Origin: Kiritimatiellia bacterium
Lineage (GTDB): Bacteria > Verrucomicrobiota > Kiritimatiellia > RFP12 > JAAYLN01
Reading direction: 5' to 3'
Length of the DNA: 64,000 nt
Assembly: GCA_017962605.1 (NCBI GenBank)
Contig: JAGCUY010000007.1
Coordinates: 752 to 64,751 of the forward strand
A program made the translations under genes and the position numbers. The notes under the pieces are model-generated. The model worked only from the letters and a program-made list of their open reading frames with translations, had not been told where the DNA came from and did not search any database. Positions 23,918 through 42,314 of this stretch are shown here, in pieces; positions within the stretch are counted from its first letter, which is position 1, and the number at the start of each line of letters is the position of its first letter.

Positions 23918-23923
23918 TGTGCC

Positions 23924-24466: not shown

Positions 24467-24750
24467 ACGTCCCAATTCACGCGTCAATCTCGACAAGGCA
24501 ATCGAGCGCAACTTTGGAAGTTATAGGAGTTCAACTGAAATCCGCAGCATAATGGCTGGTGCCATTGTTGGGCAGTTATTGGAGGGTGGATGCAGACTTG
24601 GCCGCCAAAGGTGCTGTCCGGCATTGATTGGGAACCTGTTTATGAGGCCAGTCGTGGAAAGACGGGCATAACGCGAACCCTTGACGAAGCCATTGCGTGG
24701 GCAAATGACCTAATTGCCCGCATTGATGCGGCAAGGTAGGCTCACCGAGC
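24459..24750 (+). pseudogene. Truncated/frameshifted AbiEii-like nucleotidyltransferase toxin remnant
   Basis: A 70-aa ORF 'MTKRPNSRVNLDKAIERNFGSYRSS...' overlaps the AbiEi stop. Translation continues in another frame ('TRTLDEAIAWANDLIARIDAAR*'), so it is far shorter than intact AbiEii. Confidence 0.3.
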
Positions 24751-24780: not shown

Positions 24781-24900
24781 GAACAATAGCCCACGGTGCG
24801 GAAATCTTGTTAGAACACGGTGCGGAAATCTCTTCAAAAGAACGAGCACACCGTGCGAGCCACTAACGACTAACCTCTAACGACTAGCTGCTAACCACAA
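24781..24900 (-). repeat. Left inverted copy (IR-L) of the island-flanking repeat
   Basis: The reverse complement ('gtggttagcagctagtcgttag...gttagtggctcgcacggtgtgc...tttccgcaccgtg...tttccgcaccgtgg') aligns with 39903..40020. Confidence 0.7.
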
Positions 24901-25025
24901 ACCTCTCAACTTTTCAACTTCTCAACTTTTCAACTCCTTGCCTATAACTAACTCCTACACCTACACCTCTTATCTACACCTAACTCCCAACTTCTCAACT
25001 TTTCAACTTTTCAACTTCAAAACAT
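24901..25025. repeat. (TTTTCAAC)n-type tandem repeat block with interspersed CTACAC units
   Basis: 'acctctcaacttttcaacttctcaacttttcaactcc...cccaacttctcaacttttcaacttttcaacttc'. Confidence 0.8.
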
Positions 25026-25119
25026 CCCCTTGACACCTCCCCTGCCCTTTGGTATTCTATTTTCACAATTTCTGATGTGGCGCGGCGGGTGCCACGCTGC
25101 AACCACCAAGGACTAACCA

Positions 25120-25435: not shown

Positions 25436-26110
25436 ATGCACATAGGCCAATTTATAACGAGCCACAAGTTGCTGGTATTTGGCGGCGCGGCCATTGCCGG
25501 TGCTTGCGTGGCCATCGCAACAACGTTTGTTTTGCGGAGGCTGCGCAGAACACGTAAGCCGTCCATGCCGACCTTGCACTCGAAACGGGCAGCGCCAAAG
25601 CCGCTCGAAGCGACGAAAGGACACAAGCCGCCAGTCGCGTTGCCGGCGTCCAACTCGCACGAGCAGCCGGAGCCACAGACTAAACTGCCAGTTACTCCGC
25701 CGTGGCCGACTGCGCCAGCAGTAGGCGGTGGAATTTCGGACAACTGGGCGGAGTTCGTCCGCGACAGACTTGGTGAGCTCGATCCCACTTCATGCGCGGA
25801 CGAAACCAAGTGGGCGCTGGGCGTCGTTGATTTTCTCGATGAACTTAAAGAGGCGGAAGGTGAGGCGTCGCCTGAGGAGCGCAAAGCGTCAGCCACTCTA
25901 CGCACAGCGCTTCTGTCCAGTCTCGATTTCAGAAATTTCAAGCCTGTGGATTCCGATGAATGGAATCCAGAACGGCAACGCGCAGTCGCCGTGGTGCGCA
26001 AACCAGATGCGACGGGGACAAAGATTTTGGGCAAAGGCTCAACGGGACTTTCCCGCAACGGAAAAATCATCCGCAAGCAGGAAGTCAAAATCTCAACAAA
26101 AGGCAACTGA
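25436..26110 (+). CDS. Membrane-anchored hypothetical protein (N-terminal TM, Pro-rich linker, small C-terminal domain)
   Basis: ATG start. TM 'LLVFGGAAIAGACVAIATTFVL'. No recognised domain. It is the first gene of the island. Confidence 0.4.
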   Translation: MHIGQFITSHKLLVFGGAAIAGACVAIATTFVLRRLRRTRKPSMPTLHSKRAAPKPLEATKGHKPPVALPASNSHEQPEPQTKLPVTPPWPTAPAVGGGISDNWAEFVRDRLGELDPTSCADETKWALGVVDFLDELKEAEGEASPEERKASATLRTALLSSLDFRNFKPVDSDEWNPERQRAVAVVRKPDATGTKILGKGSTGLSRNGKIIRKQEVKISTKGN

Positions 26111-26112
26111 AC

Positions 26113-27042
26113 ATGGACTACGATCAATACGACGCGCCCGACATGGCGTTTGGCGCAAACCTCTACGACGACGCATCGCCGGACATCCTCGGCGTCCCCA
26201 ATGCCCAGGCGGACTTTTGGGACATGCAGGAGTTCGCGGACAACTGCGAACCAACTGCCGAAAGCTTCATCATTCGCCAGTTCGGCTATGACAATATCTC
26301 GACAAACGATTTCGCGTACATCTCGAACGCGAACGGATGGTATCAGCCCGGAGGCGGCACTAGCCCCGACGATATCGGCAACATGATGGATATGTTCGGC
26401 ATCGAAAACCACACTTACAGCAATGCCTCCATTGAAAATCTGGCAAGCGAGCTCATGGAAGGACACGGCGTGATTGTAGGCGTTCGCGCAGACCAGCTTT
26501 GGGAGCAGGGGCCGCTGCAGGAACTGTGGAACTGGCTCGCCGACATTTTCGGTTTCGATAATCCAATTGACCAACCGGCCGACCACGCCGTATGCGTGAC
26601 TGGGATAGACATGTCAGACCCTGACAATCCGATGGTCATTCTCAACGACCCTGGACATCCAAACGGGCAGGGCGCGTCCTATCCGCTCGACCGCTTCATG
26701 GACGCCTGGGAGAACAGCAACTTCGTCATGAACGCAACAAACGACCCGCTACCCGCCTTCACGGCGCAAAACGAGGCAATCCGCGACTCCATCTCGCAGT
26801 ATCTTGCCAACAATGACATCGCGCTTCCTTCACCAAATTATACCGTAGCATCTGAGCCAGCAGACATTGACCTGAATGGAATCGCGAATTCCGTCCACGA
26901 GTTTACCACCCCTGTGACTAACATACTGCAAGACATTGCAGGAATCATTGGAGCAATTGCCGGTGTCGTCGTGGCTGGCAATCTTCTTGACAAAGCCCTT
27001 GACGGTTTTTCAGGCGGTGATGACTTTGCCTACTCCCTCTAA
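26113..27042 (+). CDS. Peptidase_C39-like (papain-fold, BtrH/C39_2-type) domain protein with C-terminal glycine-zipper helix
   Basis: ATG at 26113 was confirmed. Cys motif 'NCEPTAESFIIRQFG' and His/Asp region 'DHAVCVTGID...NPMVILNDPGHPNG' are present. The C-terminus is 'IAGIIGAIAGVVVAGNLL'. Confidence 0.45.
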   Translation: MDYDQYDAPDMAFGANLYDDASPDILGVPNAQADFWDMQEFADNCEPTAESFIIRQFGYDNISTNDFAYISNANGWYQPGGGTSPDDIGNMMDMFGIENHTYSNASIENLASELMEGHGVIVGVRADQLWEQGPLQELWNWLADIFGFDNPIDQPADHAVCVTGIDMSDPDNPMVILNDPGHPNGQGASYPLDRFMDAWENSNFVMNATNDPLPAFTAQNEAIRDSISQYLANNDIALPSPNYTVASEPADIDLNGIANSVHEFTTPVTNILQDIAGIIGAIAGVVVAGNLLDKALDGFSGGDDFAYSL

Positions 27043-27072
27043 TCTCAAACCACTCTCATCCCAGTTTTTAAA

Positions 27073-28941
27073 ATGAACACAAACAGCACCCCGACTCTCG
27101 AACAGTTTACCGATGGCGCCACCGCCGTCCTCGCGTTGGAAGCCGCTCTTACGGGCAAACCCGTCGATCCGGAATTAATCAAGAAAATCGCCATGTGGAA
27201 GATGGGCATCTTCCGCATAGTCGTAATGGGCGAGATCAAAAAGGGAAAGTCTTCCTTCATCAACGCCCTTCTTGGCCACAAGAACCTCGTGCCAGTCTGT
27301 TCGGACGTGGCGACATCGACAATCTTCAAGATTTGCTACGGCGAAAAAGTCGGCTACAAGGTCTATTTCTTCCAGGACAGCGGCAAGGCTCCAGTCGCAA
27401 TCCAGGCGGATGAACTCCCCGCATACGGCACAGAGGACGGCAATCCCGGCAACGAGAAGCAAGTTGATTTCATACAAGTCTTCTGCCCGTCGCCGCTTTT
27501 GAAAGCTGGTCTTGTGATTGTCGATACCCCAGGACTTGGAGGACTCTTCAAGCAGCACAAGCGCATTACCTACCAATACGTTCCCAAAGCCGACGCCGTC
27601 TTCCTTGTCACCGACAGCGTTGAGTCTCCAATCGGACAGGCGGAAATTGATCTCCTTGGCGACCTCAAGAAGGTGACAAAGCACATCTTCTTCGTGCAGA
27701 CGAAATCGCGACTTGTCGATGCGGATGCCCGCGAAGCCCGCAAGGAGAACAATATTCGTACCCTCGCGGAACAGGCAGGGTTCGAGAAGGACAAGATCAG
27801 GTATTTCGTTGTGGATTCGGCGACCAAATTCGCCGCCGACGAGGAACATGACTTGAAGAAGCTAGACCGCAGCGGCTTCGGCGAAGTGGCGCGTTTCGTG
27901 AACGGCTACATTCGCCCGAATGTCCACCGGCTCATCATGGCCCGCGCCATGGCGGAAATGCGTCCGAAAATCGACGCCGTATCGCGCGAACTCGACGCCC
28001 AGGCCGCAATCCTAAAGACAAAAAACGAGGAGGAACGTCAGGCCGCTATCAACGAACTGACGCGGGAACAGGAGCAGCTCAAGGCATGGGACTCTACGGA
28101 AAAGCGGGTCGTCTTGGCCATGCTTGAGGATGGCCTTGTCGAAGTCCGCGAGAAAGCGCTTGATACGATAGGCGCGTATAGGCCCAATGGGGCATTCCAT
28201 CAGGAAGTCTCTGCGACTCTCGCTAATCTTGATTCGGCAACGCAAATCGAGGATGCGCTGACAATTATCCAGCAGAACCTCTCCGATACCCTTTCTCAGG
28301 TTCTCTACGACACCGAGAAGGAAATGTCGCAGGGATGCGTGAAACTGCTTTCAGAAATCAGCCGGAAAATCGGCAAGTCTGTGGAACAAGGCGTCCTTCA
28401 GTCCGACTCGAACATTAGCGTTCCGATTTCGGGAGTTCCCGTGGAGATTAATAAATCGACGATGTTTGAGTCTTTGCGAAACGGATGGTTTGGAGGAACG
28501 TTCGGGGCGGCAATTGGTGGAGCCATCGGTAGTATTGTTCCGGTTGTTGGAACGACTGTTGGCGCATGGGTTGGCGCTTTTGTCGGCGGTGCGCTCAGCG
28601 GACTGTCATCAAACAAGCACGAAATGATTGCCGCTCGCAATCAGGCAGGTGCGGTCTTTGGCGGATGGCTTGCCAACGCATACGCCGAGATGTCGCAGAA
28701 AATCGGCTCGGCGCTAGACCAGATCAAGCGCAACGTCACGCGCGGCGTCACGGAAGCGGTGACTTCCGTCATCAAGGAGAAGGCCGACCATATCGCTGAA
28801 CTCAAGCAGATGGGGCAGAAGAGCAGCGAAGAAATAAAGGCGAAGATGGCGGAACTTCAGAAGCGCCAGCAGCAGTTCAAGCAAGCCGTCAACGACATGC
28901 AGGGCGGCGGTGCGGCAGCTGCAGCCGCCAAGGGAGCGTAG
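27073..28941 (+). CDS. Bacterial dynamin-like protein (BDLP/DynA-family large GTPase), copy 1
   Basis: G1 'GEIKKGKSSFINALLG', G3 'VIVDTPGLG', and long helical C-terminal stalk/paddle regions. Confidence 0.7.
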   Translation: MNTNSTPTLEQFTDGATAVLALEAALTGKPVDPELIKKIAMWKMGIFRIVVMGEIKKGKSSFINALLGHKNLVPVCSDVATSTIFKICYGEKVGYKVYFFQDSGKAPVAIQADELPAYGTEDGNPGNEKQVDFIQVFCPSPLLKAGLVIVDTPGLGGLFKQHKRITYQYVPKADAVFLVTDSVESPIGQAEIDLLGDLKKVTKHIFFVQTKSRLVDADAREARKENNIRTLAEQAGFEKDKIRYFVVDSATKFAADEEHDLKKLDRSGFGEVARFVNGYIRPNVHRLIMARAMAEMRPKIDAVSRELDAQAAILKTKNEEERQAAINELTREQEQLKAWDSTEKRVVLAMLEDGLVEVREKALDTIGAYRPNGAFHQEVSATLANLDSATQIEDALTIIQQNLSDTLSQVLYDTEKEMSQGCVKLLSEISRKIGKSVEQGVLQSDSNISVPISGVPVEINKSTMFESLRNGWFGGTFGAAIGGAIGSIVPVVGTTVGAWVGAFVGGALSGLSSNKHEMIAARNQAGAVFGGWLANAYAEMSQKIGSALDQIKRNVTRGVTEAVTSVIKEKADHIAELKQMGQKSSEEIKAKMAELQKRQQQFKQAVNDMQGGGAAAAAAKGA

Positions 28942-28944
28942 CAA

Positions 28945-30555
28945 ATGGGCGATGCGCCATCGGGAATAGGCCGCAAGTTGCAGGAGTCGTTCCGTGACTT
29001 CCTGCACGAGTCGGCGGAGATGTTCGGGGAATACGGGTTCCTCGGCGACTGCGAACGACAGCTTCGTGAACTGGAAGCTGGCATCGTCCGGCCCTTCAAC
29101 ATCGCGGTATTCGGACGCATGAAGACCGGCAAGAGTTCGCTCATCAACGCCCTGCTTGGTCGCGACCTCGCCATCACCGGCGTTGAGGAGACGACGGCGA
29201 CAGTAAACGTCATCTCGCATTCGGATGACCCCGCTATGCGCGGCAAATTCACCGTCCACTGGAAAGACCGTCCGCCTGAAACGTTCCTGCTTGACCGCCT
29301 CACCGTAGACTGGTCAGGCAAATCGAGGGAGGTCGTTGAGAAGGTCGCGAACACGGCCTATCTTCAACTCTACTCGGACGACCCCGCCCTAGCCCTCCAC
29401 GAAATCATTGACACGCCAGGAACAGGTGCGGCGGTCTCTGACCATGAGAAAGTCGCCCAGGCCTTCCTTGATCCGTCCGTGCAGGAGGGGCGCAAGGCCG
29501 ACGCGCTTGTCTATGTCTTTGGCATAAACGGGCGCGAGACCGACGAGGCGAATCTCAAGACATTCCGCGAGGGATGCCTACCCGGATCAAGGCCATACAA
29601 CAGCGTCGGCGTTCTTCACAAATGGGATGCCACCTATTGGAACTCCGGCGGAGACTGGGCGGAAATCCAATCGAAGGCCGAACGCCTAAAAGGGCAGATG
29701 GCTTCCGTCGTGGCGGATGTCATCCCAGTCAGCGCACCAATCGCCATGGCCGCCGCGCGGGCGACCGACGACGACCTCGCGACGGTCATTGCGCTAATCG
29801 GCAATAAGGGCGGCGAGTCCGTGGAGTCGCTGCTACAGGACGATGAAGACTGGAACGACGATGCGGACTGCCTGGCCTTGCGAAAACGTTTCACAATCCC
29901 TTGGATTTGCTTCCGGGTCTGTGTCCGCGAAGCCATCAAACTTGGCGATGGTGCGATGCCGGAGACACTACGCGCCCGTCTCCGCGAACTAGGCGGCATT
30001 GATCGTCTCCGCTCGTTCCTCGACCGGAACTTCTTCAAATCCGCCGCGCTCATCCGGCAGCGCCAGCAATATGCACGATTCCTCCGCGTCAAGGACGAGG
30101 CATACGCCCGCATACAAGACCGTCAGGAGGAACTGGAAACGGACGCCAAAAACTGGGATGCCCTATTTGAGCGGTCGATTGAACCAAGGTCTATTGCTTC
30201 CTGGGTCGAGCGAAAGCGCTTCCATGCAAAATCGGAACTGGAGACGCTCGTTCGGAAATGGACGGATCAGGACGGCCGATACCTCAACAGCGGCATCCCG
30301 AAGATCCTCGACGACCTCAACGCGCTGGACTGGTGCGCCGCCCATCCCGAACGCATATCCGAGACGGAGCTTGCGGCTCTTAATACGATGGCCGATCGCC
30401 TCGCCGGCGATGAAGCTGCCGCTTTGGACGCGGACATGCTCCGCGCCGTAAAAAAGCGCTTTTCGTCGCTCCGGCTCGGAACGCTGGACGCCGCAGGGCG
30501 CAAACTCGCCGATTATCTTTCACGCCGCATTGACGCCGCACTCCGCCTGAAATAA
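28945..30555 (+). CDS. Bacterial dynamin-like protein, copy 2 (paired with copy 1)
   Basis: G1 'GRMKTGKSSLINALLG' and G3 'IIDTPGTGA'. A 3-nt gap separates it from copy 1, the typical tandem BDLP arrangement. Confidence 0.7.
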   Translation: MGDAPSGIGRKLQESFRDFLHESAEMFGEYGFLGDCERQLRELEAGIVRPFNIAVFGRMKTGKSSLINALLGRDLAITGVEETTATVNVISHSDDPAMRGKFTVHWKDRPPETFLLDRLTVDWSGKSREVVEKVANTAYLQLYSDDPALALHEIIDTPGTGAAVSDHEKVAQAFLDPSVQEGRKADALVYVFGINGRETDEANLKTFREGCLPGSRPYNSVGVLHKWDATYWNSGGDWAEIQSKAERLKGQMASVVADVIPVSAPIAMAAARATDDDLATVIALIGNKGGESVESLLQDDEDWNDDADCLALRKRFTIPWICFRVCVREAIKLGDGAMPETLRARLRELGGIDRLRSFLDRNFFKSAALIRQRQQYARFLRVKDEAYARIQDRQEELETDAKNWDALFERSIEPRSIASWVERKRFHAKSELETLVRKWTDQDGRYLNSGIPKILDDLNALDWCAAHPERISETELAALNTMADRLAGDEAAALDADMLRAVKKRFSSLRLGTLDAAGRKLADYLSRRIDAALRLK

Positions 30556-30567
30556 AGGATCACGACA

Positions 30568-32718
30568 ATGACAAACGCAATTGGAATCGACTTTGGAACA
30601 TCAAGGACTATGGTGTCCTATCTGGATTCATCCACGGGCAGGGTGGAATTAGTGACTTTTGGGTGTGATAGGTTCGTGCCCACGACCGTTCACATTGATG
30701 AAAAAGGGCAATATCTTTTCGGTAAAGATGCGGACGAACTGATTGCCACCGATCCCGAAGGCTACTGCCGAGCCTTCAAATTGCATCTTGCGGAGAGTGA
30801 TCCTATATTGCCTCGCGCGGGGGCTACGGCTGAGGATTTGGCGAAGCGTTTTCTTGGCCATATAAAGGAGGAGTGCGAACAGAACGTTTTCCACGGTGAA
30901 CCAATCGGCATGGCGACCATTACGGTTCCGGTATCGTTCTCTCCCGCTCGCAAGGCGGCCTTGAAGCGGGCTGCGGAGGCGGCGGGATTCGCCAAGGTGT
31001 CGTTTCTGCCGGAACCCGAAGCCGCCGGCATAGCCTTTCTGCGCGACAACCCAACGGACAAGTTCTCTCGCGCGCTCGTTCTTGATTGGGGCGGCGGAAC
31101 GCTTGACATAGCGATTATTTCGCGGGATGAAGACGGAACCATCCATGCTGACAGCCATTGCGCCGAGGGGCGTGATGATGTGGGCGGAGAGGAAATGGAC
31201 AGACGGCTCCTTGAAGACATCTCTGCAAAGTGGAAGACCGCTTTTCGGAAACAGCTTTTAAACGATGAGCTGGATGGTGTCCGTTTTTTGCGCAAGTCGC
31301 AAGAAACAAAGGAGAAATTGTCGCAAAAGAGCACGGCTCCCTTCTGGGGCATTCCGCCACAAAAAATAGATGTCACACGGGAGCGATTCAGTCAGCTCAT
31401 CGACGAAATGCTTGATTCCGCCGTCGATTTGATCAAGTCGGCGCTTGCGAAAAACAAAAAACGAGGGAATCCTGCCCCAGACGCCATCCTCCTAATCGGC
31501 GGCACGAGCCAGGTGCCAGCTGTCCGCGAGGCGATGGAGACGAACTTTCCTCAACTCCGTGTTCTTTCCTGGCATCATTCTCACGAGGCCGTCGCCTTGG
31601 GGGCGACAGTGGTAGATGCGGCGGCGAATCCTCAAAAGAACATGCATTCTACTGAAAAGAACACGAATCGAAATCACAAAACTTCTCCAAGGAAGAATAG
31701 AGGTCATTTTGATGTCGTTTGTCCACATTGCGGAAGCATCGAAGATGTGACTGGCAAAGGCCGTTGGAAGTGTGATAATTGCGGCAAACCCTTTGATGTA
31801 GATTCCCGTTCTCATGTTTCAATACCAAAAGAAGAGGAAGGGCCGCAAGCCGACTATTCTGGCAAATGCTTTGAAGAAGCGTTATCCCGCGCAGGTGAAT
31901 TGGCGGAAAATAATGAGTTGAGAAAACTGAAAAAATGCGACGCCGACATTATTGCGAAAGCCGCAGAGAACGGCAATATTCGTGCTGCTGCCATTCTTGG
32001 CCGCCTCTATTCAGAAGGATCTCGTGGCTACCAGGTGGACAACGGGTTGGCGATAAACTGGATGACAATAGCGGCAAATGCGGGTGATAATGACAGTCAG
32101 GCAATTCTTGCTTTGTGGTCTCTTGGTGGCGAAAACAGCCCTGCGCAGAAGAATCGTTCAAATGCACTTAAATGGTCCGAAATGGCTTATGATGGGAATA
32201 GAAGCCTAAAAAACCAAGCGATTCTATTGATTGTTCTGTCGTCTTTTGAAGATCCGGACAAGACACGCATAAGGCGTATAGGCCAAAACATAGATGGCAA
32301 AGTTGCCGATAAAGCCCCGGAAGAATTTTCAACAGCGGAACAAGTACTTCTCGGCATCGTTTATTCTTCTCGAGCTGTTCTGGCTATGAAGTCTGGTAAC
32401 TATGAAAAGGCTCGCCAATTCCTGCAAAAGGGTGCTGACTTTGGAAATCAAGAATCCGTTGACGCTTTGGCGGAATTGGATAGTGAAGCAAACGAAGAGG
32501 AAAATGCCTCAGAAATAACAGATAAACGTACAAATCTGGAAAAAGAAGTAAATCGAAAACCTAAAAAAAACTCTTATACTGATCCCAATGATGCGGCATT
32601 AAGCGGTGCCGCAATTGGAGCCGTCATCGGGACTATCATCCCAGGCGCTGGAACTCTTGCTGGAGCAGGAATCGGTGCAATAGCCGGAAGGCTCAAGGCA
32701 TGGTGGGACAATTTGTGA
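30568..32718 (+). CDS. Hsp70/DnaK-type nucleotide-binding-domain ATPase fused to zinc ribbon, Sel1/TPR-like repeats and a C-terminal glycine-zipper membrane helix
   Basis: Phosphate-1 'IGIDFGTSRTMVSY', phosphate-2 'LVLDWGGGTLDIAIIS' and adenosine 'ILLIGGTSQVPAVRE' are present. Zinc ribbon is 'CPHCGS...CDNCGKPF'. Sel1-like 'AAILGRLYSEGSRGYQVDNGLAINWM'. C-terminal 'GAAIGAVIGTIIPGAGTLAGAGIGAIAG'. There is no Hsp70 substrate-binding domain. Confidence 0.65.
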   Translation: MTNAIGIDFGTSRTMVSYLDSSTGRVELVTFGCDRFVPTTVHIDEKGQYLFGKDADELIATDPEGYCRAFKLHLAESDPILPRAGATAEDLAKRFLGHIKEECEQNVFHGEPIGMATITVPVSFSPARKAALKRAAEAAGFAKVSFLPEPEAAGIAFLRDNPTDKFSRALVLDWGGGTLDIAIISRDEDGTIHADSHCAEGRDDVGGEEMDRRLLEDISAKWKTAFRKQLLNDELDGVRFLRKSQETKEKLSQKSTAPFWGIPPQKIDVTRERFSQLIDEMLDSAVDLIKSALAKNKKRGNPAPDAILLIGGTSQVPAVREAMETNFPQLRVLSWHHSHEAVALGATVVDAAANPQKNMHSTEKNTNRNHKTSPRKNRGHFDVVCPHCGSIEDVTGKGRWKCDNCGKPFDVDSRSHVSIPKEEEGPQADYSGKCFEEALSRAGELAENNELRKLKKCDADIIAKAAENGNIRAAAILGRLYSEGSRGYQVDNGLAINWMTIAANAGDNDSQAILALWSLGGENSPAQKNRSNALKWSEMAYDGNRSLKNQAILLIVLSSFEDPDKTRIRRIGQNIDGKVADKAPEEFSTAEQVLLGIVYSSRAVLAMKSGNYEKARQFLQKGADFGNQESVDALAELDSEANEEENASEITDKRTNLEKEVNRKPKKNSYTDPNDAALSGAAIGAVIGTIIPGAGTLAGAGIGAIAGRLKAWWDNL

Positions 32719-32754
32719 CATCGCAAGCACATTACGTTCAGGTTGAATAATAAG

Positions 32755-35340
32755 ATGAATAATTCTATCGGCATCGACTTCGGCACCACCAAGACGATGG
32801 TGTCGTATTTGAATCCCGTCACCGGCAGGGCGGAACTCGTCGTTTTGGATAAAAATCGCGACCGGCCTTCCATCCCTACGACTATTCATCAGGATGAAGC
32901 AGGGCAAGTCGTTTTTGGTGAAGAGGCCGATGACCAATTAGCCTATGATCCCGAAGGCTATTGCCGCGCCTTCAAACTTCATCTGGGGGAAAACGACCCC
33001 GTGTTGACTCGGACGGGGGCTACGGCGGAGGCACTGACGGAGCGCTTTCTTGAACATATCAAAGAGGAATGCGAACTGAACGTCTTCCACGGAGAGTCGA
33101 TAGACACGGCGACCATCACGGTGCCGGTGCTGTTCTCTCCTTCGCGAAAGGCGTCGTTGAAGCGTGCCGCGGAGGCGGCCGGATTCTCCTCGGTTTCGTT
33201 TCTGCCCGAGCCGGAAGCCGCTGGAACGGCGTTCCTGCGCGACAATCCGGCAGACAAGTTCTCACGGGCGCTTGTCCTCGACTGGGGTGGCGGCACACTC
33301 GACATCGCCATCATTTCCCGGAACGAAGATGGGGCTATCCATGCGGACCGCCATTGCGCGGAAGGACGCGATGACGTAGGCGGAGAGGAGATGGACAGAC
33401 TATTGCTTGGCGCGGGAAATGAATTGTGGCGCGCTACATTCGGGTTGCCCTTGATTGAGTCCGAGGAAAACGAGCCGAAGCTCTTGCGTGAGGCGGAGAA
33501 AGTAAAGATTGGCCTTTCCCGCAAGGATACGGCTACTTTTAGGCGCGTGACGAGGAAAGTCGATGTCTCACGGGCGCAGTTCAAGCAACTTATTGCGGAA
33601 ATGCTCGATTCTGCAGTCGAACTTGTCCAGTCTTCGCTTGCGAAGAACAAGAATCAGGGCAATCCCGCGCCAGACGCCATCCTTTTGATTGGCGGCACTT
33701 GCCAGATTCCAGCCGTCCGCGAGGCAATGGAGACAAACTTTCCTGAACTCCGTGTCCTGTCATGGCATCATTCGCACGAGGCTGTGGCGCTGGGAGCTAT
33801 AGGAACTACCACGGCAAATATCCATTCTGGCGTCAACTTCAAATTCCAAGCCAAATACGATTGGCTCAAAAGAGAGAGGGTGCCAACTCTAGGAGGCGCA
33901 ATTGAATCCGGCATCTACCAGACTCCAGATGGAGGCTGGCAGTGCAACTACGACGGAGATTGGGGGTATGGTTGCGCGATAACGCTTCGTCCCGGCGAAG
34001 CCGAACCCTATGAAGTCCACGGTGAGATCTGCAAACGGTGGTATTGGGAAGGCGGTGCCTTTGACGAAAACGGCAGACGAGGCTGGTTGGGCTATCCTAT
34101 CTCCGACGAAGAGGCCTTTGAAGGCGACGGCGATCCCGCCGATCGCATTTCGCACTTCGAGAACGGGGACATCGTATGGTCGGAGAAAACGAAAGAGACC
34201 CGCATCGTCAACATCAAGGATCTAGCAAAGTGGCGCAACTTCAAATTCCAAGCCAAATATGATTGGCTCAAGAGAGAGAGGGTGCCAACTCTTGGGAGCG
34301 CAATTGAACCCGGCATCTACCAAACTCCAGATGGAGGCTGGCAGTGCAACTACGACGGAGAATGGGGGTATGGTTGCGCGATAACGCTCCGTCCCGGCGA
34401 CGCCGAACCCCATGAAGTCCACGGTGAGATCTGCAAACGGTGGTATCGGGAAGGCGGTGCCTTTGACGAAACCGGCAGGCGGGGCAGGTTGGGCTATCCT
34501 ATCTCCGACGAGGAGGCCTTTGACGGCGACGGCGATCCCGCCGACCGCATTTCGCACTTTGAGAACGGAGACATCGTATGGTCGGAGAAAACGAAAGAGG
34601 CCCGCGTTGTCAACATCAAGGATCTGGCAAAGTGGCGCAACTTCAAATTCCAAGCCAAATACGATTGGCTCAAGAGAGAGAGGGTGCCAACTCTTGGGGG
34701 CGCAATTGAACCCGGCATCTACCAAACTCCAGATGGAGGCTGGCAGTGCAACTACGACGGAGAATGGGGGTATGGTTGCGCGATAACGCTTCGTCCCGGC
34801 GATGCCGAACCACATGAAGTCCACGGTGAGATCTGCAAACGGTGGTATCGGGAAGGCGGTGCCTTTGACGAAACCGGCAGGCGGGGCTGGTTGGGCTATC
34901 CTATCTCCGACGAGGAGGCCTTTGAAGGCGACGGCGATCCCGCCGACCGCATTGCGCACTTCGAGAACGGAGACATCGTATGGTCGGAGAAAACGAAAGA
35001 GACCCGCATCGTCAACGTGTTGACGGATGAAGCTTTGCGCCTATTTGCCGGATTATCCCAAGTAGATGGCGCCTTAAACCAAACGGAAGTTGATTTCATG
35101 GAGAAATGGTATCCCGGTTCCACTACCAAGTCGGCGTGGAACGAAAAATTGCTGTACTCCGACGAAACAATAGAAGCATTAGCCGACAATGCCGCAACAT
35201 CATACAATTGCAACAAACAAGTATTGTCGGCGTTGATGCAGCATCTATGCGAATTCGTTTTATGCGACGGCCTCATGAATTCAAGCGAGAATGCTGCGCT
35301 CTCGTGGATCAACTATTTCTTCTTTACCAAGTATCAATAA
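32755..35340 (+). CDS. Hsp70/DnaK-type NBD ATPase fused to three tandem LGFP-like repeat modules
   Basis: 'IGIDFGTTKTMVSY', 'LVLDWGGGTLDIAIIS' and 'ILLIGGTCQIPAVRE' are present. Then come 3 x ~134-aa repeats containing 'GWLGYPISDEEAFEGDGDPADRISHFENGDIVWSEKTKE'. Start is ATG at 32755 (TTG at 32743 is also possible). Confidence 0.65.
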   Translation: MNNSIGIDFGTTKTMVSYLNPVTGRAELVVLDKNRDRPSIPTTIHQDEAGQVVFGEEADDQLAYDPEGYCRAFKLHLGENDPVLTRTGATAEALTERFLEHIKEECELNVFHGESIDTATITVPVLFSPSRKASLKRAAEAAGFSSVSFLPEPEAAGTAFLRDNPADKFSRALVLDWGGGTLDIAIISRNEDGAIHADRHCAEGRDDVGGEEMDRLLLGAGNELWRATFGLPLIESEENEPKLLREAEKVKIGLSRKDTATFRRVTRKVDVSRAQFKQLIAEMLDSAVELVQSSLAKNKNQGNPAPDAILLIGGTCQIPAVREAMETNFPELRVLSWHHSHEAVALGAIGTTTANIHSGVNFKFQAKYDWLKRERVPTLGGAIESGIYQTPDGGWQCNYDGDWGYGCAITLRPGEAEPYEVHGEICKRWYWEGGAFDENGRRGWLGYPISDEEAFEGDGDPADRISHFENGDIVWSEKTKETRIVNIKDLAKWRNFKFQAKYDWLKRERVPTLGSAIEPGIYQTPDGGWQCNYDGEWGYGCAITLRPGDAEPHEVHGEICKRWYREGGAFDETGRRGRLGYPISDEEAFDGDGDPADRISHFENGDIVWSEKTKEARVVNIKDLAKWRNFKFQAKYDWLKRERVPTLGGAIEPGIYQTPDGGWQCNYDGEWGYGCAITLRPGDAEPHEVHGEICKRWYREGGAFDETGRRGWLGYPISDEEAFEGDGDPADRIAHFENGDIVWSEKTKETRIVNVLTDEALRLFAGLSQVDGALNQTEVDFMEKWYPGSTTKSAWNEKLLYSDETIEALADNAATSYNCNKQVLSALMQHLCEFVLCDGLMNSSENAALSWINYFFFTKYQ
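33835..35013 (+). repeat. Near-identical 402-bp tandem repeat x ~2.9 inside the Hsp70-NBD gene
   Basis: Units start at 33835, 34237 and 34639 ('aacttcaaattccaagccaaata(c/t)gattggctcaa...'), with only a few substitutions between copies. Confidence 0.85.
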
Positions 35341-35425
35341 TGGCATCTGGATGCAGCCAAAAGCACACCATCTAGGAGGAATAACCATGGCCACAACCAA
35401 GACATCCACCACGGAGGACTAATTC

Positions 35426-36592
35426 ATGGGACACACAACCGAACCAACTGGCGAGAAGCCGCCTGTTGAGCAATGGCTCGCAAACACTGGAAAGCATTCT
35501 GCGGAATGGACTTTCCGATCTGTCAAGAACTTCTTCAAATTTGAACACCCAACCGAAACAGAGGTTTCACGATTCGGAAGTGCCGCAGCCACTTTTGAGT
35601 TTTCCCGATTGTTTCCGCTTGCCGTCGTTTGCCTTGGCTTCGGATGGATTGGATCATGGATATGCTCTGTCTGCGATTTGGATGTAGAATCCGATTCCAG
35701 ATGGGCGATATGGCCAATCGCCTTTCTTGCCCTATATGGTGTTATTAGAGCTCTGAAGCATTTCCTGCGGCCAAAGAGCATCGAATGGTGGCCAAATGCG
35801 CTGATCTGTGCATTTACTGCCACAATAGGGTTGCTAACCCTTTTCCTCTTTCAGAGCCTGGCTGACGTAATGGCGGATATTGACGCAAGGCGCGGTTTTG
35901 TGGCATTGGTAAAAATGATTGGGCAATGCTATCGAGCAGTTGACGATCCCGAAGCTGGTCTTTCTGAGAAGTTCATAGGCTATATTGGAGGAGTCGGTCT
36001 TTGTGAGGAATCCGTGAAGATTCTCCCAGTTTGCCTCCTGATGGTCAACAGGAAAAAACTGCCGTTCAGACTTGAATTGTCTTTCCGGTCATTTTTGACA
36101 TTGGCATTCTTCTCCGGACTTGGTTTTGGCATCGGGGAGGCGCTATATAGCTATGCCATTCCTGAAAATGGCGATTTGGATGCCCAATTGTCACGGTGGT
36201 TCGCCTGCGTCCCCTCGCATGCGATCTATACAATGATCGATGCCGCCTTCCTTTGGCTACTGCAACCGCAAATCCAAAGAGCCGCAGACCCCAGAATAAA
36301 AGTAGGTTGGTTTGTCCTTTGCGTGGCAACAGTCGCTGTCTTGCATGGGATCTACGATGTCCTTTGCGTAATTCCATTTGTGGGCGTGCTCCTTGATGCG
36401 GCTTCGTTGGTGCTACTTTGGTGGGCGGTGCGGTTTTCCATTCGGCGCCGCTCCTCGGTTGACGGTTCGGATTCTTCGGGCCTAGAGGACTTCAACGCCA
36501 TGACTTTCAATACTTTTGGCAAATTTTTTGCCAAGACATATCTCATCATTCTCGTCGGCATTATCCTTTATGCCAAGTTCTGGTGTCTTTGA
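35426..36592 (+). CDS. PrsW-family intramembrane metalloprotease (anti-sigma-factor site-1 protease-like)
   Basis: RBS 'ggagga' plus ATG at 35426. Multi-TM. PrsW signature motifs 'CEESVKIL' (EExxK), 'GFGIGEALYSY' (FGxxE) and 'HGIYDVL' (HxxxD). Confidence 0.6.
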   Translation: MGHTTEPTGEKPPVEQWLANTGKHSAEWTFRSVKNFFKFEHPTETEVSRFGSAAATFEFSRLFPLAVVCLGFGWIGSWICSVCDLDVESDSRWAIWPIAFLALYGVIRALKHFLRPKSIEWWPNALICAFTATIGLLTLFLFQSLADVMADIDARRGFVALVKMIGQCYRAVDDPEAGLSEKFIGYIGGVGLCEESVKILPVCLLMVNRKKLPFRLELSFRSFLTLAFFSGLGFGIGEALYSYAIPENGDLDAQLSRWFACVPSHAIYTMIDAAFLWLLQPQIQRAADPRIKVGWFVLCVATVAVLHGIYDVLCVIPFVGVLLDAASLVLLWWAVRFSIRRRSSVDGSDSSGLEDFNAMTFNTFGKFFAKTYLIILVGIILYAKFWCL

Positions 36593-36604
36593 GGAGTATT
36601 CATC

Positions 36605-37381
36605 ATGAAGTTCATCTGTCCGCATTGCAATCAGCATTTGGAGAGTGAAGAGGATGTTGCAGGAATTGGCGTTGAATGCCCCAACTGCGGCAAAACGTTT
36701 GTCGCGGCATCCTCTGGCGCGGAAACCATGCTGGGGGAAGCTCCACAAGAGCGAACGTCTGAAGGCGAACTCGACGCTGCCAATGACTTTCTTGAACGCG
36801 CGATTGGAAACATTCTGCATGCAATCTGGGGCATAATTAGCAGAATCGGCCATGTGATTAAATGGCTTGCAATGCGCCTGTATGATGTTGTCAACTGGTT
36901 ATTCAGAATGCTAATCGACATTGTGAAGTTCTTCTTCACAATCCGTTTCCTGAAGCTTCTGGTTTTGCTGGTAGTTCTTGCGGTCGTATGCGCCGTCTTT
37001 GCGGGTATAATCGCTGCGCCGTTCTTCCTTTTGATTTGGTTCGCTCAGGGGACGCCTTGGGGCACGATGAAGAGTCTGATGGGCATGCCTTTCGTCGACG
37101 CGACCAGAGTTGTTGGGCGGACGGTGTATGCATGGCTCTGCGGAGAAGGGGTCAAACATGGTCTTTACAATGCGGCATGGATTGTTGAGGGAGTTTGGTT
37201 GGTATTGTTTGCAGGTTGGGGTGCCTGGAAGGGCGTTAAGAGCTACAAGCGCGGTGTGATTGCGCGCTGGCGTGAACGTCGAAGGATTCGTAAGGCTGAA
37301 CGCCGTGCGGAAAAGGAAGCCAGACGGGCAGCAAAAGAAGCAGCAAGGCAGGGCGAGGCCCAGCCACTCGCTATTCGCTAG
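36605..37381 (+). CDS. Zinc-ribbon membrane protein (hypothetical)
   Basis: N-terminal 'CPHCNQ...CPNCGK' ribbon, several TM helices, and a C-terminal Arg/Lys/Glu-rich tail. RBS 'gaggag' is present. Confidence 0.4.
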   Translation: MKFICPHCNQHLESEEDVAGIGVECPNCGKTFVAASSGAETMLGEAPQERTSEGELDAANDFLERAIGNILHAIWGIISRIGHVIKWLAMRLYDVVNWLFRMLIDIVKFFFTIRFLKLLVLLVVLAVVCAVFAGIIAAPFFLLIWFAQGTPWGTMKSLMGMPFVDATRVVGRTVYAWLCGEGVKHGLYNAAWIVEGVWLVLFAGWGAWKGVKSYKRGVIARWRERRRIRKAERRAEKEARRAAKEAARQGEAQPLAIR

Positions 37382-37419: not shown

Positions 37420-38499
37420 ATGGGCACGATACTTGGAGACATGTTCAAGAAGGTCGGGGGTGGCCTTGGAAAAGGCTTTGCGTCATGGCTTGGGCAAATC
37501 TCGACGTGGATTGCGCTTTTAGTCGCAACAGTACTGGCTGTCGCATCTCTGGTTGGCGGCATCTTCTGGATCCCGACAAAAACGCTGGGCGTCCTGATCG
37601 CTGGCATCGGGTGTTTAGCTTCCGGCATTCTCTTTGCCCTCTGTCTGCGAAAGAGCGGAGTATTTGGCTCAAAGGATGCGGAAACCCGTGCTGCATTGCA
37701 GAAGGAAATCGAAAAACTCCGCTGCGAAAAGGATGCCCGCATCGCCGCGTTGGAGGCCGACAACGAACGTCTAAAGCACCAGCGCATCGACGTCAATTCG
37801 TTCGCGCCCATCCTCAAGCTGGGACTTGCCGAGGCTGACATGTCAGTTCGTGATGTGAAAATCGAATGGATGGACGATTTCAAGCCAGGAAACATGTTGA
37901 CGAATGTGATTGGCTACCCCGCGCGCAGCAAATACGTTGGTGTCATTCAACGGTCGTTCAAGGCCGTTTATGGCGTCGATTTGATGAAACTCAAGATTTG
38001 CGAGGATAACGACTGTCTTCGCATAGCCGGTATCGTGCCGGAGAACATCGGCATCAAGGATGACGAAACGCGCTGGCTTCTGCGTCAGACGCAGACTTTC
38101 CGGTTGAAGGGAACTCCTCTGACGCGCGGCGATGGCATCCCGCAGCAATGCGCCATAGGCGACGGCTGGGGCGATGGCGAGAAATTCTGGCAAATCGACA
38201 AGGAAGCGCCGTTCGAGGGCAGTCTCGATCTCAACAAGACTGCGGAAATGGCGAGTGCGCAGGAGCACGAGCTTGGCGAACGCATCAACCGAAGCCAGGG
38301 CGCCGAGTTTAGGATGATGAATGGCTACATCCAGCAAATGGCGCAAGGGTTTGTCAGACTCCTCCTCGCTCCCGCCCACAAGCCTGTGGTCTTCGTACAG
38401 ACTCCGCTTGCCGAAATCGCCGACTCTCCAGCATGGCTCTCTCTGGAAGACTTCGCTGCCGGATTCAACAATAAGTTGCTGGCGGAAAACAAACCATGA
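37420..38499 (+). CDS. Membrane protein with coiled-coil segment and DUF4230-like C-terminal domain (hypothetical)
   Basis: Two N-terminal TM helices, a coiled coil 'ALQKEIEKLRCEKDARIAALEADNERLK', and a region resembling DUF4230 ('VIQRSFKAVYGVDLMKLKI...'). Confidence 0.35.
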   Translation: MGTILGDMFKKVGGGLGKGFASWLGQISTWIALLVATVLAVASLVGGIFWIPTKTLGVLIAGIGCLASGILFALCLRKSGVFGSKDAETRAALQKEIEKLRCEKDARIAALEADNERLKHQRIDVNSFAPILKLGLAEADMSVRDVKIEWMDDFKPGNMLTNVIGYPARSKYVGVIQRSFKAVYGVDLMKLKICEDNDCLRIAGIVPENIGIKDDETRWLLRQTQTFRLKGTPLTRGDGIPQQCAIGDGWGDGEKFWQIDKEAPFEGSLDLNKTAEMASAQEHELGERINRSQGAEFRMMNGYIQQMAQGFVRLLLAPAHKPVVFVQTPLAEIADSPAWLSLEDFAAGFNNKLLAENKP

Positions 38500-39134
38500 C
38501 CAAAACAAGAACGAAGAAGTCCGCCAAGGGTGGGGCCATGAAGCCTTCCCTGCGAGACCGCATCTACACCTCCTTCGAGCAGATGACGGATGCGTACAAC
38601 GAAGTGCGTGATGACCTGATCGCGCTGGGCATTCTTTGGAGGGGCTCGAAGCTCGACAAGGTGGAGTGCTACTATGAATCCATCGCCCCCATTGCCGCTC
38701 TCAAGGGGGGGATGGGGTATTTCAGTTTCAAGGACCACGACATCCATTTTCCCTCCTTATATCTGCCTTTCGGCTGGCTGACCGGCAGCGTTGGCGAAAA
38801 AGATTCTGCATCAAACGTGATCCGCCACGAGTTCGGCCACGCGCTCGCCGATCAGTACCCAGCGGCGCTGAAAAAGGGCGGGCTTTTCCGCGAGGCGTTT
38901 GGAGGAGTCTATTCCGACAAGCCTGCGCCCGACATCGATCCCGACAACTGGGAGTTCGATTGCGTCTCCCCCTACGCCGCAACCGAAACCCGCGAGGACT
39001 TCGCGGAGACTTTCATGCTTTTCCTGAAGCACAAGGGGAAGTTGCCGAAAAAGTTCGCTAATAAACCAGCCATCGCGAAGAAATGGGCCGCTGTGGCTGA
39101 AATCATAAAGCGCGTTCGTGCATTAGAAAACTGA
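38496..39134 (+). CDS. HExxH zinc metallopeptidase-like protein
   Basis: 'IRHEFGHALAD' (HExxH) with a downstream Glu in 'REDFAETF'. Its start overlaps the previous stop (ATGA). Confidence 0.5.
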   Translation: MTKTRTKKSAKGGAMKPSLRDRIYTSFEQMTDAYNEVRDDLIALGILWRGSKLDKVECYYESIAPIAALKGGMGYFSFKDHDIHFPSLYLPFGWLTGSVGEKDSASNVIRHEFGHALADQYPAALKKGGLFREAFGGVYSDKPAPDIDPDNWEFDCVSPYAATETREDFAETFMLFLKHKGKLPKKFANKPAIAKKWAAVAEIIKRVRALEN

Positions 39135-39161: not shown

Positions 39162-39872
39162 ATGAATAAAACAACAACGAAGAAAAATGCGCCAAAGGCG
39201 CGTAGGGAAACTGAAACCGTAGTCTGCCCACATTGCGATACGGAGTGCCTTGTGTCGGAAAACGGACGCTATGAGTGTCCAAATTGCACAGGACAGTTCG
39301 ATGTAGACTGGTTTGACACGCCGCATGTCCACCAGCCCGACTTGCAGACATGCGGCTGGGCGACGACAAAGTGGCTTCTGTCCGCATTTGGGTGTGAGAT
39401 GCCATCAAACAAGCAACTCGAACGGGAACTGCATGTCCGCAAAGGTCGCGATGGTCTTTCGGGCGCACTTCTCAAGGCTTACAACTACTTTATCGAAGCT
39501 TTCGGCAAGAAGTGGAACTGGCAAAAGATCGACTCTCAGGACATTTCTGGAACTTTGCCCACCGACCTTGTCGCGACACTCAATCGACATGGACTCAAGC
39601 CTGTATTTCCTGGAATCCGCGAACTGCTCCGCTATTCCGACTATAAGAACTACATGAAAGAAGTGTTCGCCCAGCAAGGCCGTTTTGCGCTCTTCTATGT
39701 TAACACGACCCGCGATGGGTCTTATGCACATTGGATCGGGATTGAGAAGTTCAAGAACAGGGTCCGCGTGATGGATCCCATGGACTATGACTACTCGCCG
39801 TTTTCAAAGCACGAAGCCATCCGCAGCAAGCGAATTCGCGCATGCTGCATGATTGGGTTCGTGAGGGCGTAG
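39162..39872 (+). CDS. Zinc-ribbon + Peptidase_C39-like (papain-fold) domain protein
   Basis: 'CPHCDTEC...CPNC' ribbon. C39-type 'QPDLQTCGWATTKWLLSAFG' (Gln/Cys) and 'SYAHWIGIEKF...VMDPMD' (His/Asp). RBS 'aggaga' is present. Confidence 0.5.
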   Translation: MNKTTTKKNAPKARRETETVVCPHCDTECLVSENGRYECPNCTGQFDVDWFDTPHVHQPDLQTCGWATTKWLLSAFGCEMPSNKQLERELHVRKGRDGLSGALLKAYNYFIEAFGKKWNWQKIDSQDISGTLPTDLVATLNRHGLKPVFPGIRELLRYSDYKNYMKEVFAQQGRFALFYVNTTRDGSYAHWIGIEKFKNRVRVMDPMDYDYSPFSKHEAIRSKRIRACCMIGFVRA

Positions 39873-42310: not shown

Positions 42311-42314
42311 TGAA

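Follow-up and report, generated by a model that had tools for sequence, protein, structure and literature searches.

A bacterial dynamin pair in a conserved operon with GrpE-like, C39-peptidase and Hsp70 partners: a candidate chaperone-controlled membrane system

Two adjacent genes for large GTPases in a Kiritimatiellia bacterium are the subject of this report. They lie at 27073..28941 and 28945..30555, on the + strand, of a 64,000-nucleotide stretch of DNA (NCBI GenBank assembly GCA_017962605.1, contig JAGCUY010000007.1, positions 752 to 64,751; the whole stretch is hereafter the window), and their products, DLP1 and DLP2, can be classed from sequence and predicted structure as genuine bacterial dynamin-like proteins (DLPs), that is, GTPases of the membrane-remodelling type. 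The reading that we favour, and to which we give a probability of about 0.6, places this heterotypic pair at the core of a conserved, mobile operon of GrpE-like, C39-peptidase, DLP1, DLP2 and Hsp70 genes, in which an Hsp70/GrpE switch with variable tails controls a dynamin membrane effector, probably as part of a response to conflict or envelope damage. It builds on the folds, the catalytic residues, the paddle asymmetry, the gene linkage, the hypervariability of the tails, natural Hsp70-dynamin fusions and the mobility of the cassette.

A first-pass annotation, made from the letters of the window, had described the pair at positions 27073-30555. The pair itself stands, but it covers only two of at least five conserved operon genes; the Hsp70, GrpE-like and C39 partners, which were overlooked, are the more interesting part.

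The dynamin pair and its asymmetry

The table of open reading frames (ORFs) bears out the tandem of large GTPases described in the first-pass annotation, with both frames in place, each starting at ATG, and 3 nt between them: DLP1, a paddle-bearing protein of 622 aa, and DLP2, a paddle-less one of 536 aa. That these frames are real genes, and no products of chance, is clear from the hundreds of full-length homologues of each; at E ≤ 1e-30, the DLP2 profile retrieves 401 cluster representatives out of 1.84 billion. NCBI names both 'dynamin family protein', from a Kiritimatiellae metagenome-assembled genome (MAG).

Are they dynamins? The Pfam family Dynamin_N (PF00350, gathering score 27) is passed by both, with 68.8 bits for DLP1 and 61.7 bits for DLP2, and a comparison by sequence with the PDB puts dynamin-like proteins first in each case: IniA (9e-20), Nostoc BDLP (4e-12) and then Campylobacter DLP1/2 for DLP1, and Cj-DLP2 (1.3e-6), then BDLP and IniA, for DLP2. 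AlphaFold2 models built on the family alignments reach a predicted local distance difference test score (pLDDT) of 77.9 for DLP1 and 83.8 for DLP2, the latter with a predicted template-modelling score of 0.75. Both show a G domain together with helices at the N-terminus and long paired ones of the neck/trunk stalk type. In the Foldseek search that the first-pass annotation had proposed, the top 50 PDB matches of either model all belong to the dynamin superfamily, among them IniA (1.7e-20, 644 columns) and BDLP (5.9e-19, 693 columns) for DLP1, and MFN1 (mitofusin-1; 9.3e-10), IniA, BDLP, Cj-DLP2 and SynDLP for DLP2. The stalk is included, with near full-length alignments of DLP1 to IniA/BDLP and of DLP2 to IniA/BDLP/Cj-DLP2. 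No NCBIfam model reaches its cutoff for either protein.

The view that they are instead EngA/Era/MnmE-like, ribosome-associated GTPases with unrelated C-terminal extensions is refuted: Pfam MMR_HSR1 matches too, and Era, EngA/Der, MnmE and HydF give weak matches at the P-loop only, but these span about 30-40 residues and stay far under their cutoffs (EngA, 24.9 bits against 306.7), those of Era, Der and MnmE to the PDB have E > 0.02, Dynamin_N is passed, and the models match only dynamin-superfamily structures, near full length and helical stalk included. Profile-profile comparison of DLP1 with DLP2 gives an alignment confined to the first ~180 residues (probability 99%, identity 27%); the two are deep paralogues.

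The GTPase domains can be delimited at residues ~45-268 of DLP1 (27205..27876, +), from column frequencies in 45 homologues and the secondary structure of the model, and at residues ~50-272 of DLP2 (29092..29760, +), from column frequencies in 43 homologues. The intact G1 and G3 motifs noted in the first-pass annotation are indeed there, GEIKKGKSS and DTPGLGG in DLP1, GRMKTGKSS and DTPGTG in DLP2, and G1, switch I (ATST in DLP1) and G3 are invariant in the 45 and 43 homologues of the two families. The partners part at G4. All the motifs of DLP2 are canonical, with HKWD at this place, whereas DLP1 has the non-canonical Q-T-K-S-R (27697-27720, residues 209-216), and its family as a whole has T-K-[S/A/C]-x, without the canonical Asp that specifies guanine. 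An aspartate three residues beyond G4, D216, is conserved in 82%. As the canonical Asp is missing, the nucleotide specificity of DLP1 should not be assumed, and its alteration is a possibility that this signature raises.

The second asymmetry concerns the membrane-facing tip. Residues ~471-508 of DLP1 (28483..28596, +) form a predicted paddle, a glycine-zipper hydrophobic hairpin with a sub-threshold match to Pfam Gly-zipper_Omp, in which two hydrophobic 19-mers are joined by a turn at the conserved Pro490; G474, G482, G486, P490, G493, G497, G501 and G505 vary hardly or not at all, and the region coincides with a low-pLDDT tip of the AlphaFold2 model. Such a tip is found in 57 of 63 DLP1 homologues against 8 of 54 DLP2 homologues (the other 46 are without it), and it is this distribution that suggests DLP1 as the membrane-inserting partner and DLP2 as the paddle-less one. 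An asymmetry of this type is familiar from other DLP pairs. Among close relatives, the identity of DLP1 is 86-91% in the G domain, 37-63% in the stalk and 22-59% in the paddle, while DLP2 is more even (86-92% in the G domain and 63-71% in the stalk); judged by these identities, the stalk and paddle are the fast-evolving parts of DLP1.

DLP2 has a feature of its own in the helical region after the G domain, the motif 'LPWxSFRV' (29899-29913, residues 319-323), of which P319 is invariant and W320 and F323 nearly so. It may be a partner or membrane-interface motif.

The conserved operon and its chaperone partners

In the window, the pair belongs to an array of 11 co-directional genes (25436-39872), with gaps of -4 to 85 nt. 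The array lies inside a stretch of ~20 kb, delimited by composition alone, with a guanine plus cytosine (GC) content of ~52% against ~63% on either side. Its first gene, gene0 (25436..26110, +), encodes a likely divergent GrpE-like protein of 224 aa, so classed from its family profile against GrpE and its position upstream of the C39 gene, and is followed by that gene (26113..27042, +), which specifies a papain-fold cysteine peptidase of 309 aa, counted from the ATG at 26113 (the mechanical ORF begins at 25960). Downstream of DLP2 come two Hsp70 genes, Hsp70a (30568..32718, +; 716 aa) and Hsp70b (32743..35340, +; 865 aa).

How far does this arrangement extend? A scan of reference genomes gave 79 loci, of which 69 have a DLP1 family member by tblastn of the window proteins. 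The related loci are mostly MAG contigs, with mechanical ORF calls and start sites; the co-occurrence counts are lower bounds, obtained by single-sequence tblastn. The C39 gene is upstream of DLP1 on the same strand in 58/66 loci with enough DNA, DLP2 is immediately downstream of DLP1 in 54/61, a gene with an Hsp70 nucleotide-binding domain (NBD) follows further downstream in 48/56, in 1-4 copies, and all four are present together in 40/54. The median intergenic gaps are only 23.5, 7.5 and 6 nt. Independent metagenome contigs, with precomputed annotations, have the same gene order. Most of the loci belong to Akkermansia and other Verrucomicrobiota, Planctomycetota, Kiritimatiellae and Victivallales, and some are scattered among Bacteroidales, Cloacimonadota, Proteobacteria, Myxococcota and Kuenenia.

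A more distant version occurs on plasmid pANA01 of Anabaena sp. 90, with an NBD-only Hsp70, four hypotheticals, a C39 peptidase, a small hypothetical and two dynamins in a shuffled order. Orthology with the window is one-to-one (DLP1, 256 vs 37 bits; DLP2, 151 vs 51 bits; C39, 1.5e-42; NBD, 3e-33). Since the co-occurrence survives both reshuffling and a phylum jump, the cassette can be considered a functional unit. DLP2 is 79% identical between the Kiritimatiellae window and a Paludibacteraceae MAG, and this cross-phylum identity, the low-GC island and the plasmid copy argue together for horizontal mobility. A phage or plasmid origin was set aside, as the phage, viral-contig and plasmid collections searched hold no close relatives except the Anabaena pANA01 cassette; PHROG matches are confined to the glycine-zipper and to generic Hsp70.

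The protein encoded by gene0 has a transmembrane helix near its N-terminus (residues 10-28) and, after a linker rich in Pro, a conserved GrpE-like domain at its C-terminus; its homologues stand directly upstream of C39 in 21 other loci. The best PDB match of the family profile is the GrpE 4ani_A (E 0.0086, residues 19-211 of 213, with the signature motifs in register). GrpE is also the sole Pfam family matched individually by several members, 4 of 22, with a best E of 1.1e-8, and the window copy taken alone gives E 0.03. This makes gene0 a likely divergent GrpE-like exchange factor, often membrane-anchored in its family.

The C39 protein passes Peptidase_C39_2 (PF13529) with 32.3 bits for a cutoff of 24. 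Its residues Q39, C45, H158 and N178/D179 are conserved in at least 85-90% of 42-59 homologues, and the preservation of this Gln/Cys/His/Asn-Asp set points to a probably active enzyme. A signal peptide is lacking, and a hydrophobic segment lies in the C-terminal part (residues 268-286); no solved structural relative was found for it in the PDB, even by profile. In a Kuenenia stuttgartiensis MAG (L047:242-418), a J-domain with E 6.5e-12 to that of E. coli DnaJ is encoded just upstream of C39, roughly in the usual place of gene0.

The Hsp70 proteins are NBDs with something else attached. Their Pfam HSP70 matches (8.1e-34 for Hsp70a, over profile positions 109-378 of 599 only, and 7e-33 for Hsp70b) stop at about position 378 of 599, and the substrate-binding domain and lid are missing. 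The DnaK residues D8, K70, E171, D194, GGG196-198, T199, D201 and GG341/342 are at least 95% conserved in 62 cassette copies, on the strength of which these Hsp70s are predicted to be active ATPases. Behind the NBD, Hsp70a has a zinc ribbon and Sel1/TPR repeats (Pfam matches Sel1 and a Zn ribbon) and, at its C-terminus, a glycine-zipper membrane anchor, which resembles the DLP1 paddle (E 4.7e-6); Hsp70b has three LGFP modules (Pfam, 1.4e-27) and a C-terminal domain. The LGFP modules are encoded by a 402-nt x 3 tandem repeat of 95% identity (33828..35016, +; Tandem Repeats Finder score 2173), which suggests a recent expansion of this tail. A TerB domain at the end of Hsp70b is sub-threshold (E 0.019) and hence is not claimed.

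Across the 62 copies, the tails range from 40 to 835 aa, and BLAST groups them into 36 clusters, of which 31 are singletons. Sel1 (11), ankyrin (8), FGE-sulfatase (5) and the ribosomal L7/L12 C-terminal domain (5) are found in them by Pfam, along with TPR, Zn ribbons, NosD beta-helix, GYF, WG repeats and cyclophilin, and a hydrophobic C-terminal anchor is present in 12/59, about a fifth. From this domain content, the tails are mostly non-enzymatic binding modules, mutually unrelated. The L7/L12 domain, which is the module that brings translational GTPases to the ribosome, occurs in one or two copies in the tails of the Akkermansia-type loci L012, L016, L017, L024 and L028, and was confirmed by phmmer with E values down to 3e-15 against the E. 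coli domain. The FGE-sulfatase fold (C-type-lectin-like, 'FGS') is fused to the NBD in 5 loci, with a best E of 5.5e-57, and appears in 2 flanking ORFs too; it is a classic target of diversity-generating retroelements.

In two loci the NBD and a dynamin are fused within a single ORF: L041:15741-18929, from a Verrucomicrobiales MAG (phmmer E 1.8e-17 against the window DLPs), and L061:4854-8219, from a Victivallales MAG (8.4e-10). These natural fusions support a direct coupling of Hsp70 to dynamin. Additional DLP-like genes lie downstream in L041 and in L063.

Four accessory genes and a last one complete the array. The first, at 35426..36592 (+), encodes a PrsW-family intramembrane metalloprotease (Pfam PF13367, 4.4e-14) that is lineage-specific, with no counterpart in the other loci by tblastn. 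A zinc-ribbon and multi-transmembrane protein (36605..37381, +; weak zinc-ribbon Pfam matches) has a homologue in L005. It is followed by a membrane protein with N-terminal transmembrane helices, a coiled coil and a C-terminal domain (37420..38499, +), which begins MGTILGDMFKKVGGG, has a weak match to the LeoBC paddle region and is 46% identical to homologues in the Paludibacteraceae cassette L003/L004. A Peptidase_Mx-type zinc metallopeptidase (38496..39134, +; Pfam PF15887, 27.5 bits for a cutoff of 27) recurs in L003/L004, L031, L033 and L084. The last co-directional gene (39162..39872, +) encodes a zinc-ribbon protein with no Pfam family; its candidacy as a second C39 peptidase was rejected, with an hhalign probability of 0.3 to the cassette C39 and sub-threshold Pfam C39 matches (E 0.12-0.25).

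As for the borders of the island, the best sigma-70-like promoter match, TTGACA-17-TATTCT with a TG extension (25030..25058, +), lies ~380 nt upstream of gene0; it is a weak 10/12 hit in a consensus scan, and promoters of the Planctomycetes-Verrucomicrobia-Chlamydiae (PVC) group may differ from the consensus. At the left edge, short tandem arrays with an 8/16-nt unit (AACTTCTCAACTTTTC; 23663-23733, 24900-24935 and 24994-25017, with another at 9123-9138) flank an AbiEi-like gene; the 16-mer matches 8 times for 0 expected, and the arrays may mark the boundary of the island or act as a regulatory repeat. The gene in question, an AbiEi_4-type antitoxin/regulator (23888-24466, +; Pfam 27.2 bits for a cutoff of 25), is followed by a short ORF (24459-24740) where an AbiEii toxin would be expected, so that it may be part of a degraded type IV toxin-antitoxin pair. 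At the right end, a module consisting of a 24-nt array, a 33/34-nt array and an AAA_14/DUF4143 ATPase gene is duplicated (39966-41862 and 42096-43117), the first gene copy being complete (463 aa) and the second truncated to its DUF4143 part; the AbiEi-like gene and the two DUF4143 ATPases stand on the flanks of the array. An AAA_14 gene adjoins the cassette in L084 also. No tRNA is present in the window, and no integrase was seen at the island borders. The strongest GC skew of the window (+0.15 to +0.25) is at 50001-54000, far from the cassette.

Other loci have neighbours of their own. Genes for a Ser/Thr protein kinase and a sigma-70 region-2 protein, absent from the window, stand just upstream of the closest cassettes (L003/L004, 1180-3407; L084, 4429-6440) and may be the regulatory module of an extended system. 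One cassette has upstream a gene for SrfB, 'virulence factor SrfB' (L085:4951-6963); a neighbour annotated SrfB is also listed for one cyanobacterial 'chaperone clade' DLP (supplement of PMC5827413).

What the cassette may do

How could these parts work together? In the mechanism that we propose, DLP1 would insert into the cytoplasmic membrane through its glycine-zipper paddle, and DLP2 would be recruited through DLP1 by G-domain or stalk contacts, by analogy with the Campylobacter DLP1/2 hetero-oligomers. The variable Hsp70 tails would recognize as their target an invader or else a component associated with damage, and the Hsp70 ATPase cycle, reset by the GrpE-like factor, would act on this recognition by recruiting the DLP1-DLP2 oligomer at the membrane, assembling it or taking it apart. 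GTP hydrolysis would then power membrane sealing, tethering or fission, and the C39 peptidase would process a component or a target. In the end the membrane might be sealed for protection, as proposed for DynA, undergo fission or vesiculation, as for IniA and Leo, or suffer abortive damage. Who senses what, in which order the events occur and whether they serve conflict or envelope damage are the conjectural parts of this scheme. Its most specific form, in which ATPase-only Hsp70 sensors or adaptors, cycled by a membrane-anchored GrpE-like factor, switch on the dynamin pair and the cysteine peptidase at the cytoplasmic membrane, is put forward tentatively, at less than even odds.

A role in conflict is suggested by the compositional island, the 79% cross-phylum identity of DLP2, the carriage by a plasmid, the rarity of the family, the variation in copy number and the hypervariable tails, including those with the FGE-sulfatase fold. 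Conflict systems that combine paralogous GTPases with HSP70, GrpE and NBD-only Hsp70 have been described (PMC7159879).

Several results weigh against the scheme. The Hsp70 gene is missing in 8/56 loci and C39 in 8/66. The GrpE assignment of gene0 is built on weak-to-moderate scores, and a J-domain, sought by tblastn with two J-domain queries, was met near 1/83 loci (L047) and not at all in the window. No relatives were met in the viral-contig and phage-genome collections searched. A flank test, rough and without a matched control, took 111 ORFs of at least 200 aa lying no farther than 6 kb from 37 cassettes and did not find defence-island enrichment: about 4/111 were defence-like, namely one AbiLi/AriA-type ATPase and three Ser/Thr kinases (generic PD-T4-6 matches), and the others were ordinary metabolic or housekeeping genes. 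The Akkermansia-type cassettes adjoin rho, coaE, NUDIX and Band_7 genes. As most loci are MAG contigs, the taxon labels of individual loci may be binning errors.

The main rival is a module for membrane maintenance with a dedicated chaperone: a housekeeping or stress-induced function of the IniA/IniC or DynA type, in which Hsp70/GrpE only assembles or disassembles the oligomers, the tails are envelope anchors, and no conflict is involved. Hsc70 recycles coats in eukaryotes. IniA is the best match to DLP1 in both structure and sequence, the flanks are mostly housekeeping, the chromosomal neighbourhood, with the Band_7 gene in it, is conserved among the Akkermansia-type loci, and LGFP, Sel1 and membrane-anchor tails could well bind envelope components. 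There are precedents too, in the dnaK-like gene of the Mycobacterium smegmatis ini locus (PMC5760070) and in the cyanobacterial BDLP clades with DnaK-domain neighbours (PMC5827413). However, a maintenance module sits uneasily with a low-GC island, near-identity across phyla, plasmid carriage and such rarity (401 representatives in 1.84 billion), or with 1-4 Hsp70 paralogues per locus whose tails are unrelated (36 clusters in 62). FGE-sulfatase, ankyrin and L7/L12 tails are hard to read as envelope anchors, and it is not obvious what a conserved cysteine peptidase would do in repair. We consider this explanation a serious one, even if on the unlikely side.

The cassette might also be a plain two-gene anti-phage system of the Leo/Eleos ('Dynamins') type, with the neighbours as unrelated cargo of the island. 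DLP1 does match PADLOC LeoBC (1.7e-26) and LeoA (4.8e-24) near full length, an AbiEi-like gene is present at the island edge, and a Leo-type pair of B. vietnamensis protects against jumbo phages in a P-loop-dependent manner. Nevertheless, the match of DLP2 to LeoA/LeoBC is restricted to ~55 residues at the P-loop, and the NCBIfam model LeoA/HP0731 gives 22.9 against 325. Moreover, C39, GrpE-like and Hsp70 genes are kept with the pair across phyla, at spacings of 6-24 nt, and also in the shuffled cyanobacterial plasmid; with the Hsp70-dynamin fusions and the missing defence-island enrichment added, this possibility is improbable.

Last among the rivals is a vesicle or secretion machine, in which the dynamin pair releases membrane vesicles and the C39 enzyme matures cargo of the double-glycine type. 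Peptidases of the C39 family classically cleave Gly-Gly leaders, and the accessory membrane protein at 37420 contains a Gly-Gly. DLPs (IniA/IniC) mediate the release of extracellular vesicles in M. tuberculosis (PMC10240201), LeoA enhances toxin release (PMC4159319), and vesicle release was proposed for LeoABC. On the other hand, the cassette has neither an ABC exporter nor a conserved small cargo gene, the C39_2 protein lacks a signal peptide and belongs to a Pfam family different from the transporter-linked PF03412, and the Gly-Gly-containing protein is outside the conserved core. We judge this idea very improbable.

The chaperone-controlled dynamin effector thus remains the reading that we prefer, and what would follow from it? 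Bacterial DLPs have usually been studied as isolated pairs, and in the cassette the sequence itself points to candidate regulators, namely an Hsp70 ATPase, an exchange factor and a peptidase. The Hsp70 tails are a natural library of swapped recognition modules, with an architecture like that of NTPase-based immune systems, and the whole is a testable candidate for a new membrane-acting system of defence or damage response. It also provides a tractable bacterial setting for the control of dynamin assembly by an Hsp70 cycle, a combination whose other known cases come from membrane traffic in eukaryotes. If the sensor/adaptor idea is true, this would be a mobile machine for immunity or damage response and, in bacteria, the first case of an Hsp70 nucleotide cycle mechanistically coupled to membrane remodelling by dynamins. 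Should the role prove to be housekeeping and nothing more, the cassette still defines a new and well-delimited BDLP subfamily, found mainly in PVC bacteria, the gut Akkermansia among them.

Comparison with known systems

Parts of the linkage were known before (PMC5827413), and the full cassette is undescribed as a system, so far as the literature search reached. In the papers covered, subscription-only ones being outside, no description was found of the complete GrpE-like/C39/DLP1/DLP2/variable-tail-Hsp70 set, of its PVC-centred distribution or of the fusions.

Among the closest known systems is the heterotypic pair Cj-DLP1/Cj-DLP2 of Campylobacter jejuni (PDB 5owv; PMC6104087), whose members are likewise the products of adjacent, diverged DLP genes in one operon and are matched by the window proteins in sequence and fold. 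Paired DLPs work as hetero-oligomers, as in the Campylobacter DLP1/2 tetramer (PMC6104087). The Campylobacter operon has a Sel1-repeat (HcpA-like) gene downstream (PMC6104087), and Sel1 is the commonest Hsp70 tail of the cassette. However, the identity to the window DLPs is only 12-16%, the Sel1 repeats of the window are fused to an Hsp70 ATPase, and no Hsp70, GrpE-like or C39 genes are reported for that operon.

IniA/IniC (PDB 6j72; PMC6715688) is another paired system, and IniA is the best match of DLP1 by sequence (9e-20) and fold (1.7e-20), at 18% identity. The cassette lacks iniB and an IniR-type regulator. The ini locus of M. smegmatis includes a gene similar to dnaK (PMC5760070), whereas no C39, GrpE-like or variable-tail Hsp70 partner appears in the published descriptions examined of the mycobacterial locus.

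The first-pass annotation had placed the genes with the BDLP/DynA/LeoABC-type pairs, which holds for the dynamin superfamily and fails, by HMM, for both the Leo/Eleos and the DynA types. The resemblance to Leo, 'Dynamins' or Eleos lies in the tandem DLP pair and in DLP1, which matches PADLOC LeoBC at 1.7e-26 (76-596 of 601) and LeoA at 4.8e-24; DLP2, in contrast, fits LeoA only at 45-100 of 559, the ~55 residues around the P-loop, and NCBIfam LeoA/HP0731 (NF041922) gives 22.9 for a cutoff of 325, more than 10-fold short. Membership in Leo/Eleos or LeoA/HP0731 was rejected on HMM coverage and cutoffs. Leo-type pairs are co-localized with known defence systems in ~60% of cases, and the two-gene pair of B. 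vietnamensis needs both P-loops to protect against jumbo phages (Millman et al., bioRxiv 10.1101/2022.05.11.491447). They are two genes in defence islands, whereas the cassette has at least five conserved genes and no defence-island enrichment. DynA, a two-headed fused DLP (NF052648), was rejected as well, with 56 and 25.4 bits against 1600 and units that are separate genes here.

In its overall logic, the cassette resembles the DO-GTPase/GAP1-N2 conflict systems (Kaur, Burroughs, Iyer, Aravind 2020; PMC7159879), where two paralogous GTPases also occur with Hsp70, GrpE, NBD-only Hsp70, membrane-proximal parts and variable repeat or FGS-type domains; 'FGS' domains are highlighted in that work as invader-binding modules, and dynamin is not mentioned. 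The likeness ends with the enzymes. DO-GTPases constitute a TRAFAC family of their own, in which a Walker-B glutamate is present, Zn ribbons are frequent at the N-terminus and GAP1 is the obligatory partner, whereas the GTPases of the cassette have a dynamin fold and an invariant DTPG at G3/Walker B, and the downstream genes encode Hsp70 NBD proteins; the absence of GAP1 is deduced from domain assignments, not from a GAP1 model. An identity with these systems was therefore rejected, since the GTPase family is different, and the analogy is one of logic only. CoCoNuT/McrB-linked Hsp70 and the DnaK-fused EACC1 protease modules are unrelated contexts.

Earlier work with a bearing on the linkage is that of Jilly et al. 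2018 (PMC5827413), who sorted cyanobacterial BDLPs partly by their neighbours into an 'HSR1 clade', where the DLP is followed by an 'HSR1-related' GTP-binding gene, and a 'chaperone clade', where a DnaK-domain gene follows. The supplement of that paper lists ANA_P10081, a plasmid gene of Anabaena sp. 90, in the HSR1 clade, and this is probably the DLP1 orthologue seen here, the 658-aa gene of L087. C39, GrpE-like and variable-tail Hsp70 genes were not described there as one system, nor was a distribution outside cyanobacteria, and the downstream 'HSR1' was taken as a GTP-binding protein without apparent GTPase function. By its sequence and predicted fold, that partner is a second dynamin-fold protein with canonical G1-G4 motifs, and the existing annotation can be corrected in this sense: what follows the dynamin in these cyanobacteria is another dynamin.

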